Below, in pieces: positions 5,001-13,710 of a DNA stretch of 64,000 bases; positions within the stretch are counted from its first letter, which is position 1, and each line of letters starts with the position of its first letter. The DNA is taken from positions 17,608,001-17,672,000 of the forward strand of contig CAIIXF020000001.1 of the NCBI GenBank assembly GCA_903813345.2. Reading direction: 5' to 3'. A program made the position numbers and the translations under genes. Origin of the DNA: Owenia fusiformis. Lineage: Eukaryota. The notes below the pieces were generated by a model. The model saw only the letters and a list, made by a program, of their open reading frames with translations, searched no databases and was not told the origin of the DNA.

Positions 5001-8000
5001 GTGCATTATCAAGGAGAAAACAGAGAAGGTAACAATTGGTAAAAACCCAAAATGAAGTACAAACCCTGTGCAAATTAAGAACTTGTTTGATTAGACAATT
5101 GGAAAACATAGGAAAAAAATAGAAGACATAGATTATCAAGAAGCTTTGGAAAACATCGAAGCCCAAATTAAAATTAAAGTGGAAGACAAGGAGTTAAAAA
5201 ACAAATATAACTTATCCTAACAAACACTCGTGGAGTTAAACCGTAACGAAATTATTCTGTGTATACCCTCATCAACCCGGGGTTATCATATAGACAAAAG
5301 CTGATTGAAAGGGGAAAACTTCACTTCAAAAAGTCACCCAGAGAACTATTGCCAAAGCTCAAGTAAAACACTGTCTTATAGTATCTAAAAAATCTAAAAA
5401 TGCAACCAATAAAAGCACAAGATAGGTGGCTAAATATGAATGAAGATATAACTTCAGGGAATTGGATCAAATATACACCACTACTTAAGAATAGTAATGC
5501 GAAACTAAGCTTGTTCCTCGGGAGATGCACATATTTCCCTTTGGATAAACCCTGTATCCAAAACCTCCCAGTACATAACCCTTGTATATATCATGGCTTT
5601 TATTTAACTCACCTAAGAGATGAGCTGGGATTTGTCCAGTGGAAGGAAATTTATCTTCTCCATATTTATCAATGAGCTTCCTTTTTACATAGGCATGCAA
5701 ATTCAGATAGAGCGGTTTGAGCTGTTCGTATAATTTTTGGCATTCTTCACGTAGATTGTCCATGTCATACCAAGAACGCCAATATTCGCCCGTATCGGCA
5801 TATCCTATAAAAACACAGGGTACTCAGGAAGTAAAGTTAGGAATGGTTTTATTTACACTGAAATTGCTAAACAACCTATATTCCTCAAATCTAATACTCT
5901 TAATTTAGCTGTTGAAAATATTTGGTAGGTCTACCCCTTTTCATTGAATTTTTAAGGGACATATTATTCTATCTAATAACAAAGTCACTGTTCCACAACT
6001 AGTTACTTTGACGGAACGTCAATGTAACAAAATGGATGGATTTCCTCTTTAAGAGTTTTCTGATTTCTCGATTTAAACTTGCTTATAAGTCAAGCTGTAG
6101 ATTACAATTTGGCACAAAGCAAGAAAATATAGTCCAGTTTCAATAACTTTCTTCAATTTGGAATTTGTTTGTAAATGAAGTTGCAATTCATATATTTAGC
6201 CCCTCGCTTTTGTTACATTGACGAAAGTCCGTTATATTACCAATATGTTACTTTGACGACTAACGCCAATGCAACAAAAGCGATGGTCTAAATGCATGAA
6301 TTCTAGCTTTTTTAAAAGATCAAATTCCAAACCGAGGGCATTTCTAAAAGCTAGACTATATCGTCTAACTTTGTGCCAAATGATAATCCGCAACATTACT
6401 TATACGTAAGTTTAAATCGAGAAAACAAAAAACTCGTATCCAGGAAGTTCATCCATTTTGTTACATTGACGTTCCGTCAAAGTAACTAGTTGTGGAACAG
6501 TGATAGTTCAACGTACCGTTGGCGCGTGCGGCCTCATTACTGATATTTACGAACTCCTTGTACAAATTGCGCATCTTTCTCCCGGACACATTTCTCCATC
6601 CAAACCACGCCCACAATAGTTTATCATAGTCACGTGACTCTGCTAGTATCCTAGTTAGACCTAAAAAGGCACATGTGTTTGTATTTCCTAACATTTCTAA
6701 ATGCTTTCATCTTATTTATGAATATAAATTAAACTCTACTAATTTATTGTTAATATAAAAAAATGCAATAACGATACGGGGTTTTAGTTTAGTTTTACGA
6801 TTATACTGTAACAGCGAAGTTTCAGGAACACCCACAAGGCTACAAGTAGTCATGCATTTAGCATATTAACGAAAATGATTGGTGCAAAGAAATGTGTCAT
6901 TCTTTGATAATAAAAGCATGGCGGTTAGAGAGAAACAAAAGCAGAATAACGGCGACATTTTATTTCATTAAGGGTATGGACTACTCCCAACGCTCGTACC
7001 TGGATCAAGATTGTTGCACGTTGAATCATCATCACAAAGTTGTGCAGAGCTGTATAGACGTTCTAACTCAGATTCTATTACCTTTAACTAAACAGCAAAA
7101 TGCAGGATATGAAATACTGTAATATGCAAAACTGACATATCATGCAGGCTAAAGTGACTCTATGCGTAGGGGGTTTGTACCATTTTTAGTGTTAATGTCA
7201 ATAGAAGCGAAGGCGAAGGTATTCATATCACGAGATTCATTCATTTTGGGTCTTTTTTGTCTATCGCATATGCCATCTATTCATTCAAAGTTACGAAAAA
7301 ACACCTTCCTGAAAAGTGTGCACGGTCTGCTAACCTGAACTTCTGAACTTCTACTGCTATTTATCACGAAAGCTAATTTTTATTACTTCAACGAATAGCT
7401 GCACAAAAGGAGCTTTGTATAGTATTCAATAAGATTTTTGTTCTACGTTTCTTCTCAGTTAATACGCATAGTGCCTCTTTAAGATTCAAAACTAAATACA
7501 TGCATGTATTGTTGGACATGTGATAATTAAGTGCTATATAAAGAAACTCTGAATCACGCCTAACCATCGCGTAAGCAGGCGTCACCGTACAGCGTCAAAA
7601 AATACCGTAGTACAGTTTTCTGTACGGTGACGAAAATTAACTGAGTTGAAGCAAAAACTTTAATGAGGGTTTTAAAAAGATTAATTAGATGAAAATAAAT
7701 ACGATTTCGGGTGTAATGAAAACAGCATTCTCTTAGGAATGGTTTTAACTTTCTAATTATGATAAAAGTTTTTCGAGCACTGCTCGGATTTTTTCTGACT
7801 GGATCGGCCCACATAATCGACTCGAGAGAAAAAGGGTGTTTTTTCACTTTTCGTTTGGTTATTATTTTCCCTGTCGTCTGAGAGTATGGATTATTTTTAT
7901 GAGAATATGTATTTGTTATCTACACATTTTTAGAACAGATGAATATTCGGCAAATAATCATTCAGTGTATTTATTTTAAAAAGATCAGAACTGTACGGTG

Positions 8001-11000
8001 ACGCATCAGCTGAACGGTGACGCTTCCTTAGATTTTAGGAAGTGCTCTAAGCTTACTGTTCGAACAAGAGGTAATGAAACGTCAGATCTACATGTACATT
8101 ATCACTGGTTAGTATCAAGCGAAGGTTACAGCCGTCACCTTCGCATTTAAGATGGCGGACAGGAAGTATTAATTTCGATATTTTTACTTTTCATGGAATT
8201 AACTATTTGAAAGTTGACGTAATGCTTTGGTATCATTTGAACTAAACCAGGCTTTTCTCATATGACTAACAAAGATAGCCTACACAGCCATCTTTACCCC
8301 ATGCAAGATATTGCATCTTTCATCCTAAAAAGTCACACGTGCAAGATGAGATTTACTTGTGACATCCCTTGTTTTAAAATACAATAACATAGCAACAAGA
8401 GAGTTTTTGGTTTCATGATCTTTACCGTATCATACATTTCCAGTAACCTTCCATTAAGCTGTGGAAGATATCGTTGAACTGTAGCGCCCATGCACTATAT
8501 ATGAACAAATGATCATACTCCGGAGTTTCCATTTCATACAATCTTAGTCTCATTTAGTTCATCATAGCATAGCGTCACCGTACAGCTGGTGCGTCACCGT
8601 ACAAATTTGATCTTTTTTAAATATACATAATGAATGGTTGTTTGCTGAATCTTCGCCCGTTCTAAAATGTGTAAGTAACAAATACATATTCTCATAAAAA
8701 TAATCCATACTCTCAGACGGTAGGGAAAATAATAACCAAACAAAATGTGAAAAAACAACCTTTTTTCACTCTGGTCGATTATGTGGGCCGATTCACTCAG
8801 AAAAAATCCGAACAGTGCTCGTAAAACGTTTATCATAATCAGAAAACTGTACTCCGCTATTTTTTGACGCTGTACGGTGACGCCTGCTTACGCGATGGTA
8901 AGGCGTGTGAATCCCATATTGTCTTTGAGATGTCCATCCACATTGATTACTTAAAAAATTCACATCTTAAATTTAACAAAGCTAGTGTGAAATTGTAAGT
9001 TTCTGGCAAAGATAGTTTAGAATTAGCGACAATGCAGGTGGACTGCCTTTGCTTATACGAGTCATATCACCAAACATAATTAGAAAAGGCCAAGATTAAA
9101 ACTATAATAGGATACTTGTATTTTATTCAAAGTGTGGATTATGCGCTCATATTTTTGAGCTGAGTTTACTCATCCACTATCAATACACATAAAACTATTT
9201 TTCAAATCAAAAACACTTGTTACATTTTCACTTACTACTTACATGCAAAGACTTTAGTTTAAATAAAAACAGTTGTTGTACCAGAATGAAGTGCTGTGAA
9301 GTTTGGAGGTTTTTAACCTATTCATTGTAAAACCATTACTACCAAGTAGTAAATCCCCGGAGTAAATCTAATATCTGTGACAAAACAAAATCCTTATCCT
9401 CGTTCCGTTATTGTGATTTAGTCTATTCAATCGCTATCAGCGTGGCCTTATGATTAAACTGGAACGTGAATTTTTAACATGGATGCAACAAAAATCTTAT
9501 GATTTTGTGTCTCGTTGTAAAGTAATTTACCGCATAAGGCATACTTCTAAAATGCAAAACCTCCATTCTTACGCACTCCATCTTGTTACAGAATTGTAGT
9601 CGAGAGCAAAAAGGGTCACATATCAACAACATTATAGTTAGAAGTGCATTTCCTTAAACATTGAAGGCAGTATCAGATCAGTATAGGGATGAAAAATTGC
9701 AAGCAAGAATGTTGAAATTCTCTCAAATAATATAAATGGTAACCGTTAGAGAAAAATAATACATTATTGTAAAAACTTTAGTTTTACTGAAATGAAATAT
9801 GCACTTTGGGGATTTTTAGAAAATAAACATGACAAGGAATGATATGAGCCAAACACATTTTAAAATTGAAATAAATTGTCGCTTGATCTGATTCACCCTT
9901 TAATTGTACCAGATATGCAATACTAATTACTACAATTTAAAAAACACAGCATAACAAGGTTGTGTTAGTTGATAAACAATTAATAGGAAGCTTTTGCATA
10001 ACGGAACGTGTAGCCTTAGTCACACCGAACATCTACCTGGTTCCAAGTGAAGGCACTCATCTGGGGTACGGCAAAGCGCTGCCGTTGCATAAATTTTCCT
10101 CATGTTCGCACCCAGCTGGTTTATCTTTAAGGAATGGAGAAATTGTTTGTTAGCAAATTGATTCTAGAAAGCTTATCTGAAACAAATATGTTTGACGTAT
10201 ATGAGTGTGAGTGTAAGCCTCTAGTTTTATTGTATTTTATTGCGATATGATATGCAAGTCATGTCAAGCCCAAGTCAAGTAGGATGTCAAAATGAAGACG
10301 GCGTGGTACAGGGGGCTAATAAAAGAGTAAGTGTAGATTGTATAATTGCTTACAAACTTCTCAAAAGGTCGATGGTTTTATCTTCGTGTAGATGATGCAT
10401 ATTATTAGAAGAAGGGGTAGGAGGTATAAAATGTTGGAAGTAGTATTTCAAGAAACATGCCAGAGTTTCCCTTGTAATCCTCCATTTTATGAAAATATAT
10501 CTGAGCAAATGAAGACATTTTTAGGACTAAGTTTCCATCCCTTCTACTCTCTTTAAATCTAATCTTATGAAGTGGTTGTCATCTCACAAATATTCTTACA
10601 TATTTACATAGGCTTAGGTTTACACGATCACTAGAATTAAAGCGTTTGTGATTTGAATATCTAAGTATAACATAACTATATCGAATGACACTTATAAATA
10701 ATTGAAGAGACGCGAGGCTAAATATACAGCGACATACCACTCATCAAATTAATGTTGTTTTTTGTTGAATATTTGTTTAGAATTAGAATGGTACATAAAA
10801 TGCAAGTACTTCTTGAATAAACATACAAAATTCATTTATCAACGCGAATCAATGCTACTGTCATTTACAATTCACTAGTGGATAACAAGAGTTATCTAAA
10901 GACTTGCGCGTGTACACCCCCTACACCCAGTTCTACATCCCAGTAAAGGAAGGTCACCTTTTATGTTTGGCGATTTTAACAAAATATTTTATCATCAATC

Positions 11001-13710
11001 TCCAGTCTATATTGTAATTGGGGAGCAAAATAAGATTCTCACTTGTATCTAATGAGAAGCGTATGGATGGGGTTGGGGTGTTAAATTCAGGAGCACGATG
11101 TTTAAAGTGTCCGTTTACCCTAGAAACGAATTTGCATTGGATCTAAAACAGCCCTTATGTGTTTTTTATTCTATTTGAAAATTTTAAATCTTACGTGAAA
11201 CAATTTAAGGCAACAGATAATGACAACTTTTATTGATTACTTATTTTGGGTTTCGTTATTTGATCTAAAGATTTCTGAATGTCGGAATGTCTAGTGATGT
11301 ATGTCTGTTGAAAGAAGATGCACCAAAATAGTACTTATGTTTGCTAAACTATAGATCATATGACCCACCTACCCGTTTCTGTTTACGTTTATCTGTCAAT
11401 GCGGCTGTGCCTATATCTACCAGTTTCTTAAATATTCGCTTCAGTGTAGAATTTTGGAAATTTTTCCAGTCGAAAGATGATGACCGTCTAAAATTCCCTA
11501 AATTAAAAGCTGATCTGGATAAGATGGCTTCTTGCTGAGAAAACAATAAGAAAAGGCAATTAGTAACTCATTTTATATATTGTATCAGTGTAGTATTTAG
11601 ACACTGCAGGGTTCTGTTTCGAGTTCACCATCTCTTCATGTGGAATTTGTGATTCCTTCAGCAGAGTTCAGTAGTTCGCGTTTCAAAATACAAGTATCTC
11701 AAGGCAGCGCCCTACGACGAGAAAAATGATTAGTTAGTGGTAATGGTGTGTCAAATCTGGATCAGTTACTCACCTTTGTCAACCTGTCTTCGGGCAGAGA
11801 GGCCGATCCTATGTCAGAGGCCTTTTTGAAAATTCTCTTCAGAGTTTCATTTTGAAATGCAGTCCAGTTGAACCTCGATGCATTTGCAGCTACCTCCTTT
11901 TCAAATGCTGCCTCCACCAGTTTAGCTTCTACCTGTTCGATTTTACATAAAATACAATTCATGAAATACATTGTTATGAGTTGTTATGAGGAAGCAAGTT
12001 GAGTATGGAGAGGGCCATGGGGCAGCAAATACCATACCAAACACCAAGGGTATTCTAGGACTGTTGCACAGTCAGCAATATCTATCTCCTATATACCTTT
12101 AATTTGTTAGACACATTTTCACGATTAGTTTCGGTTACAGATGTCCACAAAGCACAAAATCGTAATAAAAGGTTAAACTATACTTCAAGTGACTTGAATA
12201 TTGTAGAAAACAGTTAATATAAAGTTTGCATTCTTCAACCCAATTCGCTGTGCTTAGCAACATCTCGTGAAATCTCGCATTTGCTGTCAAGTAATTGACA
12301 AAATGAAGTAATCCATTACTGTTGCAAATTCACGAACGACTCAGAAAATAACGTATAATCAGATGTCACGTTTTGATCGTATGGAGAACTAAAGAACTTA
12401 TCAAAATTGGTTGGTAGACTTTCGTCTAGAAACAACATTACCAAAAAAGGTTGATCTGATATGAATACAACCTACCACTCTACACTAAACCTTTGCAAAG
12501 AAAAGACCTGCCGAAATTAAAACTCGTTATTTCTAAATGAGTTATCTGTTCAAATAGAAAAGTTAATGGAGTTATGTCGGCACAGAACGCACAGAACGCC
12601 AGTGCGTTAACTATTGTTAAGAATTCAAATAAATAATTTCTCAAAAAATTTGTTTTCTTATGGCAACATACAATTATGTGTGAGGTCAATTCCAATAAAT
12701 CGAAAAAAGATTATGTGGCTACTAGGTCTATACTTTGAACATATAATAGTTTCTATTTAGATGCATTCATAATCTACGGGTGGTTTTCAATTCACTTACT
12801 GGTGCCAACTTTATGACGAGTACTTAGTTCCTATTACTGTTATGTTATGATAACTACACATTGCTAAGATGCTATGGATGCCAGTTGGTTTATGTTGAAG
12901 GTGATTAATATGTGTTAGGCTGTCAACACCATGCCACCAGGCTCCGTTTTGAAAGCAATGCTGTCTTAGTATGTATATATAACACAAACACTACACAAGA
13001 AATGTACACAATTTTTTTTTATTATTTCAAGTCCAACAGATGATGAAAGTTCAAATAAAAAAATCTCATGTTGTTTCTCAGGTCTCGATAGTGTGGTGAC
13101 CATGTCCATAGAAGATCTGTAACACAAATGAATGATTTAACTTCAAACAAGATATTGGTTGTTGGAATTACATCTTCAATTTTGTTATTTTCATAGCATT
13201 CCCCTCAGAGCAGTTAGTGTGGGAATATAAAGATCTGACATCAAGACATTTTGCGCACAACACAAAGAAATGCTTCGATTGGATAGCGAGGATAGTGGAC
13301 ATATCAAAATTGTATCTGTGCATTAAGCTGTAGAGGTGTATTTGTTTTTCTAAGTTTCCGGTATTATTTATTTGACCATCTCATCAATGAGGACAATTCC
13401 TAGAGGACCATATGTAGATTGACAATTACTAGGCCCCCATATAGCTATGGAGTCTGCTAATAATTTATAGGGTAACCCCACCATGGTCACTGCAGAGCAT
13501 GCAGAAGCGATTACTTACCGACAGTTGTGAGTTATGATCCGTTAGGTTTGTGTTGTAATTCCAAGACGCCTGAATCGATTTAAAATAGACTTCCTGAGAC
13601 TCATCATTCACTCTATTCACGAAAGCCCATGCTTCATTTTCATCAGTTATTAACTGACAATCTGTGCTTGCAAAAGCGACAACAACCATCAGCAACCCTA
13701 TGGAAGACAT
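1929..13710 (-). CDS. ACE: Angiotensin-converting enzyme-like zinc metallopeptidase (family M2), multi-exon, 5' part only; 3' exons lie left of the window
   Basis: Exons join with consistent phases: 13710-13519, [11932-11774 or 11534-11373], [10124-10037 or 7087-7000], 6660-6517, 5804-5613, 4642-4542, 4179-4007, 3322-3198, 2668-2570, 2290-2146, 2027-1929. Motifs: signal peptide, [66 protein letters not shown]...PYIR. Confidence 0.96.
2146..2290 (-). CDS. ACE: ACE exon 10 (145 nt)
   Basis: (E)[47 protein letters not shown](R); tttAG / GTACTT. Confidence 0.95.
2570..2668 (-). CDS. ACE: ACE exon 9 (99 nt) with the third zinc ligand Glu
   Basis: (G)[32 protein letters not shown](E); ctatAG / GTAAAC. 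Confidence 0.95.
2761..3000 (-). repeat. Degenerate local tandem duplications of the intron 8 / exon 9 junction
   Basis: 2761-~2860 resembles 2642-~2750 (GFHETVGDI vs GFHEAVGDV plus the flank agaaaagttatgaa..ttgactgtttaaaattacataa). A third intron-only copy lies at ~2906-3000. Confidence 0.8.
3198..3322 (-). CDS. ACE: ACE exon 8 (125 nt) with the HEXXH zinc motif
   Basis: (R)[41 protein letters not shown](G); ttcAG / GTAAAA. Confidence 0.95.
4007..4179 (-). CDS. ACE: ACE exon 7 (173 nt)
   Basis: [20 protein letters not shown]...[20 protein letters not shown](R); tacAG / GTGAGA. Confidence 0.95.
4542..4642 (-). CDS. ACE: ACE exon 6 (101 nt)
   Basis: (G)[33 protein letters not shown]; ttatAG / GTTGGT. 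Confidence 0.94.
4773..5200 (+). pseudogene. Degenerate Tx1/L1-like reverse transcriptase fragment, antisense in ACE intron 5
   Basis: [11 protein letters not shown] (RT GxRQGCPLS motif), then after a frameshift [13 protein letters not shown]...[21 protein letters not shown], resembling QFADD..L...F...SGL.IN..KT. The right boundary is approximate. Confidence 0.7.
5613..5804 (-). CDS. ACE: ACE exon 5 (192 nt)
   Basis: (G)[17 protein letters not shown]...[20 protein letters not shown]...IPAHLL(G); ttatAG / GTGAGT. Confidence 0.95.
5986..6502. mobile_element. Foldback MITE, Transib-like (CAC...GTG ends, imperfect 5-bp TSD)
   Basis: Ends CACTGTTCCACAACTAGTTACTTTGACGGAACGTCAATGTAACAAAATGGATG are exact inverted copies; the whole element is roughly palindromic; flanks AAAGT / ATAGT. 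Confidence 0.85.
6517..6660 (-). CDS. ACE: ACE exon 4 (144 nt)
   Basis: (G)[47 protein letters not shown](G); tttttAG / GTACGT. Confidence 0.95.
7000..7087 (-). CDS. ACE: ACE exon 3b (88 nt, phase 0-1), paralog of 3a
   Basis: ttttgctgtttAG|[29 protein letters not shown]+G|GTACGA; same length and phases as 3a, both cysteines kept. Confidence 0.88.
7555..8907. mobile_element. Long-TIR non-autonomous DNA transposon, Transib-like (CAC...GTG, TSD TGAAT)
   Basis: CACGCCT(A/T)ACCATCGCGTAAGCAGGCGTCACCGTACAGCGTCAAAAAATA at both ends, inverted. Arms span ~7555-8025 and ~8570-8907, the right arm lacking ~135 bp. TGAAT at 7550-7554 and 8908-8912. Repeated GCGTCACCGTACAG motif. Confidence 0.92.
10037..10124 (-). 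CDS. ACE: ACE exon 3a (88 nt, phase 0-1), alternative copy
   Basis: ccttaa[31 protein letters not shown]+G|GTAGAT; ACE-type IY..A..C....C..LEP motif; not in the ORF track. Confidence 0.88.
11373..11534 (-). CDS. ACE: ACE exon 2b (162 nt, phase 0-0), paralog of 2a
   Basis: ttttctc[62 protein letters not shown]; shares [18 protein letters not shown] with 2a; TACTAAT branch-like site upstream. Confidence 0.88.
11774..11932 (-). CDS. ACE: ACE exon 2a (159 nt, phase 0-0), alternative copy
   Basis: aac[61 protein letters not shown]. Confidence 0.92.
13519..13710 (-). CDS. ACE: ACE coding exon 1 (192 nt): signal peptide and first helix
   Basis: [20 protein letters not shown]...[17 protein letters not shown]; donor TCG|GTAAGT, phase 0. 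Confidence 0.92.

Follow-up and report, generated by a model that had tools for sequence, protein, structure and literature searches.

Clusters of mutually exclusive exons that arose by tandem exon duplication are classically represented by Dscam and myosin heavy chain. The angiotensin-converting enzyme (ACE) of vertebrates is known as a two-domain somatic form and as a testis form produced from an internal promoter. The minus strand of the 64-kb stretch of DNA analysed here (referred to throughout as the window, at its full length) carries the gene for ACE, a peptidase of family M2, from the annelid Owenia fusiformis; in this gene, exon 2 and exon 3 are each present as two adjacent homologous copies, named 2a/2b and 3a/3b (Table 1). 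We consider it probable that these pairs stem from two old and separate tandem duplications, that all four copies are under purifying selection, and that they act as two normally mutually exclusive clusters with 2a+3b as the major combination.

The likeness to Dscam and myosin heavy chain lies in the sequence of the exons, which within each pair are adjacent and homologous, equal or nearly equal in length, identical in phase and responsible for the same structural segment of the protein; the use of one copy out of two is a candidate property of the Owenia gene. The differences are that each Owenia cluster comprises only two variants and that no docking/selector pairing, steric constraint or U2/U12 incompatibility was detected.

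A counterpart within the same enzyme is found in the nemertean Lineus longissimus, known here from its annotated isoform proteins. The ACE-like isoforms X1 and X2 (XP_064643851.1 and XP_064643852.1), both of 637 amino acids (aa), have 15 differences, all of them within residues 122-145, and this block aligns to Owenia exon 3, so that the same exon of the same enzyme is swapped one for one. A further isoform, X3 (XP_064643853.1), starts inside a third version of the exon-3 block. The Lineus copies of exon 3 are ~50% identical, compared with 7/29 residues in Owenia, no exon 2 variants are annotated in Lineus, and the 29 residues of the exon are too few to tell a shared duplication from an independent one. 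It had been proposed from the Owenia sequence that exon swapping was undescribed for M2 peptidases. No description of exon swapping in ACE was found in the full-text literature searched, the scope of which did not extend to subscription journals and supplements, and for that literature the proposal holds; it does not hold for public annotation, where the Lineus X1 and X2 isoforms differ only in the exon-3 block. What is new in Owenia are two unannotated, deeply diverged exons, 2b and 3a, and a second cluster at exon 2.

Two duplicated exon pairs in one ACE gene

The gene can be followed through its annotated product P0001 (CAH1773416.1), a protein of 650 aa that carries PF01401 and has the UniRef name 'Angiotensin-converting enzyme'. 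Exon 1 encodes residues 1-64 of this protein at 100% identity, and tblastn of P0001 on the window traces the ACE gene from 13710 down to 1928, along a path that runs through exon 1, exon 2a, exon 3b and exon 4 and then through seven further exons. The remaining C-terminal exons lie beyond the first base of the window, which holds the 5' two thirds of the gene. Residues 20-598 of P0001 align with the chains of human testis ACE (tACE) at ~745 bits, and the protein is an ordinary single-domain, membrane-anchored ACE orthologue. Exons 1, 2a and 4 each score above the 23-bit Pfam cut-off for Peptidase M2, and exon 2b reaches 20 bits. Neither a second ACE gene nor other ACE-like open reading frames (ORFs) were found within the window by tblastn and profile searches.

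All four duplicated exons have an AG acceptor, a GT donor and zero in-frame stops, and within each pair the variants share the same phase, are of compatible length and keep intact splice sites. The two intact copies of exon 2 and of exon 3 that were reported in the original prediction are thereby reproduced on the minus strand in their coordinates, lengths, phases, AG/GT boundaries and stop-free frames. At the local composition, the chance of a random open frame is ~0.018 over 54 codons and ~0.12 over 29 codons.

The neighbouring exons of each pair are homologous and cover the same protein segment, both by their Pfam positions and by profiles of orthologues. Against Pfam Peptidase_M2, exon 2a matches positions 46-96 (28.3 bits), exon 2b positions 51-96 (20 bits) and exon 3a positions 99-128 (11.1 bits, E 0.15); exon 3b searched alone gives no match to this family. 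Block profiles for exon 2 and exon 3, built from the aligned N-termini of 28 non-Owenia ACE orthologues, were searched against every stop-to-stop ORF of 20 aa or more in the window, 2194 in total. With the exon-2 profile, 2a scores 74.1 bits and 2b 61.8, and the runner-up ORF scores 7.4; with the exon-3 profile, 3a scores 35.5 bits and 3b 29.9, and the runner-up scores 3.9. Each exon thus has two true copies and no more, with scores well beyond chance, and neither tblastn nor the block profiles found a third copy of exon 2 or exon 3 in the window. The unannotated exon 3a matches the family profile better than the annotated exon 3b (35.5 versus 29.9 bits), and the Owenia annotation omits two well-conserved coding exons, 2b and 3a.

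The order of the exons along the gene, 2a, 2b, 3a, 3b, implies that each exon was duplicated on its own. Separate duplication, rather than duplication of a block or of the whole gene, had been put forward on the same grounds and is confirmed by this order.

Table 1. Duplicated exons of the Owenia fusiformis ACE gene, the introns between their copies and the flanking constitutive exons, in positions of the window
Feature	Position	Strand	Length	Phase	Remarks
Coding exon 1	13519..13710	(-)			ATG, signal peptide, first lid helix; constitutive; Pfam M2 2-43
Exon 2a	11774..11932	(-)	159 nt	0-0	In both annotated proteins
2a-2b intron	11535..11773	(-)	239 nt
Exon 2b	11373..11534	(-)	162 nt	0-0	Unannotated paralogue of 2a
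Exon 3a	10037..10124	(-)	88 nt	0-1	Unannotated paralogue of 3b; encodes the Cys pair of the first disulfide
3a-3b intron	7088..10036	(-)	2949 nt		Holds a 1358-bp foldback-type repeat
Exon 3b	7000..7087	(-)	88 nt	0-1	In both annotated proteins; equals P0001 residues 118-147, 100% identical
Exon 4	6517..6660	(-)		accepts phase 1	Constitutive; follows either exon 3 copy; Pfam 130-176

Both duplications are old: synonymous sites are saturated and the flanks of the copies are without similarity. By the Nei-Gojobori method the proportion of synonymous differences (pS) has reached saturation in both pairs (0.79 in 2a/2b, 0.84 in 3a/3b), and the nonsynonymous proportion (pN) is 0.39 and 0.56, respectively. 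The 200-nt flanks of the copies retain no residual similarity (z -1.25 to 0.26), and of the exons themselves the nucleotides of 2a and 2b still align (z 9.8), whereas those of 3a and 3b do not (z -0.87). In amino acids the copies are identical at 24/53 positions (2a/2b) and 7/29 positions (3a/3b). Mean identity to the orthologues is 37% for 2a, 34% for 2b, 38% for 3a and 33% for 3b, and the distance of each copy to its sister is about the same as its distance to orthologues in other phyla.

In spite of this divergence the copies have kept the character of coding exons of this family. Identity between copies falls from codon position 2 to position 1 to position 3, the pattern expected of coding sequence, in exon 2 (0.62, 0.51 and 0.42) and in exon 3 (0.59, 0.31 and 0.24). 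At the 32 conserved columns of exon 2, the orthologue majority is matched by 2a in 25 and by 2b in 23, five of them by 2b alone; at the 19 conserved columns of exon 3, it is matched by 3a in 12 and by 3b in 9. These matches are similar across the copies of each pair, in keeping with the earlier observation that ACE residues are retained despite heavy divergence. Terminal branch lengths are similar as well (2a 0.62, 2b 0.66, 3a 0.80, 3b 0.91). Neutral drift over such a time would be expected to erase the frame, the AG/GT boundaries and the family residues, and their retention, with synonymous sites saturated and the flanks lost, argues for purifying selection on all four copies and hence for 2b and 3a having been kept by selection. 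We regard this apparent signal of selection as the strongest argument for the use of 2b and 3a.

Exon-level trees are poorly supported, with 0/27 and 1/26 inner branches well supported, and the approximately unbiased (AU) test rejects none of the clades 3a+3b (p 0.69), 2a+2b (p 0.41) and Lineus X1+X2 (p 0.61).

Use of the duplicated exons

At the exon 3 cluster, the reading frame itself limits what can be joined. Translation of the joined exons reaches a stop at codon 152 when both copies are included (exon 1, 2a, 3a, 3b and exon 4) and at codon 118 when exon 3 is skipped (exon 1, 2a and exon 4), and since joint inclusion and joint skipping both lead to an early stop, exclusivity in this cluster would be enforced by the reading frame. 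The translations agree with the original prediction, in which inclusion of both 3a and 3b was said to break the frame and inclusion of both 2a and 2b to leave it intact. In the mechanism that we propose, mRNAs that contain both or neither of the exon 3 copies would be non-productive; the break in frame is computed, and the decay of such mRNAs is presumed.

The exon 2 cluster has no such safeguard, so that the choice between 2a and 2b would have to depend on splice-site competition or on trans-acting factors. The intron between the two copies, at 239 nt, is too long for steric exclusion, and the donors of the cluster are ordinary GT types in which no U2/U12 incompatibility was detected. Exon 2a combines a purine-rich, weak-looking acceptor with a consensus GTGAGT donor, and exon 2b a strong pyrimidine-rich acceptor with a GTAGGT donor. 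This contrast suggests regulated competition rather than constitutive choice.

RNA structure was considered as a further route to exclusivity and rejected, with the folds unremarkable and the inverted matches at chance level. Folding of 11790-11340 gives z -1.19, with 12/100 shuffles as good, and folding of 10190-9990 gives z +0.19, with 106/200 shuffles as good. Within the 3a-3b intron, 9111-9131 is complementary to 11685-11698 upstream of 2b (a 14-nt perfect match), a pairing that would loop out both 2b and 3a, and also to 11942-11957 just upstream of 2a (16 nt, 88%); a further inverted match links 6952-6967 with 9867-9882. A rough estimate for 7.4 kb of this composition is that chance alone would yield ~0.5 to 1.6 matches of this kind, and those seen are to be read as leads only.

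Expression was followed in three RNA runs chosen by species label (X13, X14 and X15), each read to 6-12%, together with one DNA-like run (X1), and splice junctions were listed only from at least three reads. The ACE gene is barely expressed in the three RNA runs, and its sense depth is confined to exon-bearing bins. The bin of 2a has sense depth in all three runs (0.18-0.53), that of 2b a depth of 0.6 in X14 only (~148 aligned letters, roughly one read), that of 3a a depth of 0.26 in X14 only (~64 letters, roughly one read, covering 10076 and 10086) and that of 3b a depth of 0.69 in X15 only (two reads over 7055), while eleven repeat-free intron bins have a sense depth of 0, except for 0.08 in one X13 bin. 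In X14, the 64 letters on 3a and ~12 letters in the bin where exon 4 begins would fit a single 151-nt read that crosses a splice between these two exons. Taken together, these reads hint faintly at transcription and processing of 2b and 3a.

The differences listed between run X1 and the window number two in 3a, one in 3b and none in 2b, and are too few to test constraint. In 3a, 10076 G>C changes Leu to Val, an allele shared by the single X14 RNA read, and 10086 T>C is synonymous; in 3b, 7055 T>G is likewise synonymous.

Several points weigh against the use of all four copies in two mutually exclusive clusters. Both annotated Owenia proteins, P0001 and P0126 (CAH1773415.1), carry 2a+3b only, and their cluster at 90% identity in a collection of 15 billion proteins consists of these two members, which means that the collection contains no near-full-length product with 2b or 3a. 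A query with 2b against proteins of 96-2000 aa matched 0/33 candidates, although this is weak evidence. No ACE junction was supported by at least three reads in the RNA runs at the depth to which they were read, and with reads on 2b and 3a amounting to about one each, the splicing partners of these exons and their exclusivity have to be inferred. In the exon 2 cluster, co-inclusion of 2a and 2b stays in frame, as does the skipping of exon 2, and no mechanism of exclusivity was found in intron length, donor types, local folding or inverted matches. Because dS is saturated, with pS past the limit of correction, the ratio of nonsynonymous to synonymous rates (dN/dS) has no proper estimate. The original prediction had envisaged mutually exclusive use with up to four isoforms; its basis, two real paralogous pairs in one ACE gene, stands, and the isoforms and their mutually exclusive use are candidates, with both annotated proteins being 2a+3b and with about one RNA read each for 2b and 3a in one of the three runs.

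The two-member protein cluster built on 2a+3b, the 33 database candidates of 96-2000 aa without 2b and the single reads on 2b and 3a in one of three runs would also suit a gene in which 2b and 3a are relic pseudo-exons that no longer enter productive mRNA, so that only 2a+3b matters. The same gene does hold a dead partial duplicate, that of the exon 9 junction, from which the AG has been lost. We nevertheless think it unlikely that 2b and 3a are relics of this kind. Despite saturation and the loss of similarity in the flanks, both keep their frames, AG/GT boundaries, phase and consensus residues (23/32 in 2b and 12/19 in 3a, against 25/32 in 2a and 9/19 in 3b); 3a stands above 3b on the orthologue profile, and the branches of 2b and 3a are not longer. 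The few RNA reads sit on 2b and 3a and not on the neighbouring intron bins. Finally, the one clearly dead duplicate in the gene has lost its AG and most of its exon, unlike 2b and 3a.

A pattern of use that is alternative but not mutually exclusive, with 2b as a cassette that joins 2a as an in-frame insertion of 54 aa, or with exon 2 skipped, seems to us quite improbable. It draws on the open frame of both arrangements, on an intron of 239 nt that is spliceable, on the lack of any detected feature that would enforce exclusion, and on depth in both the 2a and the 2b bins of X14. However, 2a and 2b fall on the same Pfam positions (46-96 and 51-96), so that co-inclusion would double two lid helices within a compact fold, and the alignment of 28 orthologues contains no such insertion; for 3a and 3b, co-inclusion runs into the stop at codon 152. 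An assembly or haplotype artefact, in which the second copies would be alleles that had been collapsed or put in the wrong place, or else fragments of a different ACE paralogue, was raised since mis-assembly can duplicate exons, gained no supporting point, and is scarcely credible given that identities of 24/53 and 7/29 aa are far from allelic, that the window has no other ACE-like ORFs, and that X1 contigs of another individual are colinear across 2a, 2b, 3a and 3b (6751-7549/8908-9355, 9823-10658, 10683-11629 and 11707-12105).

We therefore prefer to think of the locus in terms of two old, separate tandem exon duplications that gave rise to the pairs 2a/2b and 3a/3b in a single-domain ACE gene, with one copy of each pair normally entering the mRNA. 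The combination 2a+3b would be the major form, and 2b and 3a would be used rarely, or in tissues or stages outside those sampled.

Other features of the locus

Exon 1 ends in CTGTCG, followed by a GTAAGT donor. The HHEMGH segment (exon 3345-3196) and the GFHEAVGD segment (2669-2571) both lie in the window and are identical to P0001; together they provide the zinc ligands of the enzyme, HEXXH plus the downstream Glu. The HEXXH zinc motif of ACE is stated in PMC9796954.

The foldback-type repeat in the 3a-3b intron occupies 7550-8907 (1358 bp), with arms at 7555-7622 and 8840-8907 that are 96% identical and three further arm pairs. It is absent from another individual, in which an X1 contig joins 7549 to 8908, and it looks like an insertion polymorphism; the repeat is high-copy, with depth in the thousands, and is present among the RNA reads. 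Short repeats of very high copy number also lie in ACE introns at 6436-6503 and 9611-9857, where X1 depth is ~23800 and ~3600, respectively. Many RNA reads on these two repeats continue into unrelated sequence, and the depth of the exon 4 bin is swamped.

Further downstream in the gene, the junction between intron and exon 9 has a tandem partial duplicate of ~90 nt (2852-2761 versus 2731-2642, ~85% identical). The upstream copy, 2852-2761, has a similar GFHE..GD start, has lost the AG acceptor and diverges after ~28 exon bases, and is a dead exon fragment in the ACE gene. The last visible intron, after exon 2029-1928, contains a fragment of a LINE-type retroelement at 16-1777 on the minus strand; its ORF 1235-1777 matches RVT_1 (E 3.8e-25), and the adjoining ORF of 336 aa has no Pfam match. 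At the other end of the window, 30000-64000 has a persistently positive GC skew, a negative AT skew and no ORF of at least 95 aa, in contrast with 1-30000; it may represent a long intron, or else a gene on the opposite strand.

The swapped segment and the diversification of ACE

The exons were placed on the human enzyme by alignment to the testis isoform (P0059) in mature numbering, with Leu37, which we take to be the start of the crystallised tACE chain, as the point of reference; the numbering reproduces the sequons at 72, 90 and 109 and the Cys residues at 152 and 158. Exon 2 is equivalent to tACE residues 82-134 and exon 3 to residues 135-163, so that the swapped segment as a whole spans 82-163. 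In PMC9796954, the N-terminal ~100 residues of human ACE are described as a flexible, lid-like region with a possible role in controlling the access of substrates. The original prediction had placed the duplicated exons in the lid region together with the first disulfide, and it is borne out by this alignment and by the Cys pair, both members of which are kept in 3a and in 3b.

The two copies of each exon would give this segment different properties. According to the same paper, PMC9796954, Glu162 of the C domain (cACE), which corresponds to the shorter Asp140 in the N domain (nACE), adds to the C-domain selectivity of lysine-bearing inhibitors. At the position equivalent to tACE 162, exon 3a has Glu and exon 3b has Asp, and the human C and N domains show the same E/D difference in the alignment. 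Net charge is +1 in 2a, +9 in 2b, 0 in 3a and -5 in 3b, and there are three N-glycosylation sequons in 2a, one in 2b and none in 3a or 3b. Compared with the annotated 2a+3b enzyme, an enzyme with 2b+3a would have a much more basic and less glycosylated lid and a Glu at 162. The swapped segment takes in part of the lid together with the first disulfide and the counterpart of residue 162, and exchanging it would be likely to alter the substrate access and the S1'-side preference of one catalytic core.

This invites comparison with vertebrate ACE, which likewise has catalytic units that differ at the specificity position, with Glu162 in cACE and Asp140 in nACE (PMC9796954) set beside Glu in Owenia 3a and Asp in 3b. 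The difference lies in how this would be achieved, as vertebrates duplicated the whole domain and carry both in one chain, whereas Owenia would swap ~80 residues of a single domain.

The two annotated Owenia proteins also differ from one another. CAH1773416.1 and CAH1773415.1 (P0001 and P0126), both of 650 aa, have seven differences, all of them within residues 509-547, which is the pattern that would be left by a third swapped pair of duplicated exons in the same gene. This block lies beyond the first base of the window; it is annotated, unlike 2b and 3a, and its copies are far more alike than those of 2a/2b or 3a/3b.

Among molluscs, the ACE-like isoforms X1 and X2 of the gastropod Littorina saxatilis, both of 646 aa, have five differences in 368-399, in the exon that encodes HEXXH rather than in exons 2 and 3. 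Three ark-clam-like sequences, P0011, P0129 and P0017, are Logan transcripts whose cluster also holds a Tegillarca granosa protein; their ACE products are of the same length and share an identical C-terminal part. P0011 and P0129 have seven differences in 357-384, the block of the HEXXH exon, plus seven scattered single differences; between P0011 and P0017 there are 73 differences, which fall in residues 1-188, the whole N-terminal module. These transcripts suggest that a bivalve swaps exons or has an alternative N-terminal module, or they may represent paralogues or chimeras. Overall, exon swapping seems to be recurrent in lophotrochozoan ACE genes.

A broader proposal, possible but doubtful in our view, is that the Owenia ACE gene is a combinatorial generator in which three independent exon-swap clusters, those of exon 2, exon 3 and the annotated C-terminal pair, could yield up to eight enzymes, and that tandem exon duplication is a recurrent lophotrochozoan route to ACE diversity, seen in an annelid, a nemertean, a gastropod and a bivalve. 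If this were true, the N-terminal swaps would retune the charge of the lid, its glycosylation and the Glu/Asp specificity position at which the human C domain differs from the N domain, and exon duplication in lophotrochozoans would reach the functional split that vertebrates obtained by duplication of a whole domain.

With the duplicated exons of Owenia, the M2 peptidases would join the families that are diversified by exon swapping, and together with the isoforms of Lineus, Littorina and the clam the locus points to repeated evolution of exon swapping in lophotrochozoans. ACE is a heavily studied drug target, for which the control of preference by the lid and the S1' side is still being derived from the two human domains. 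The Owenia gene may offer natural variants of the lid and of the Glu162/Asp140 position on one constant catalytic core, which would make them accessible to direct enzymology.

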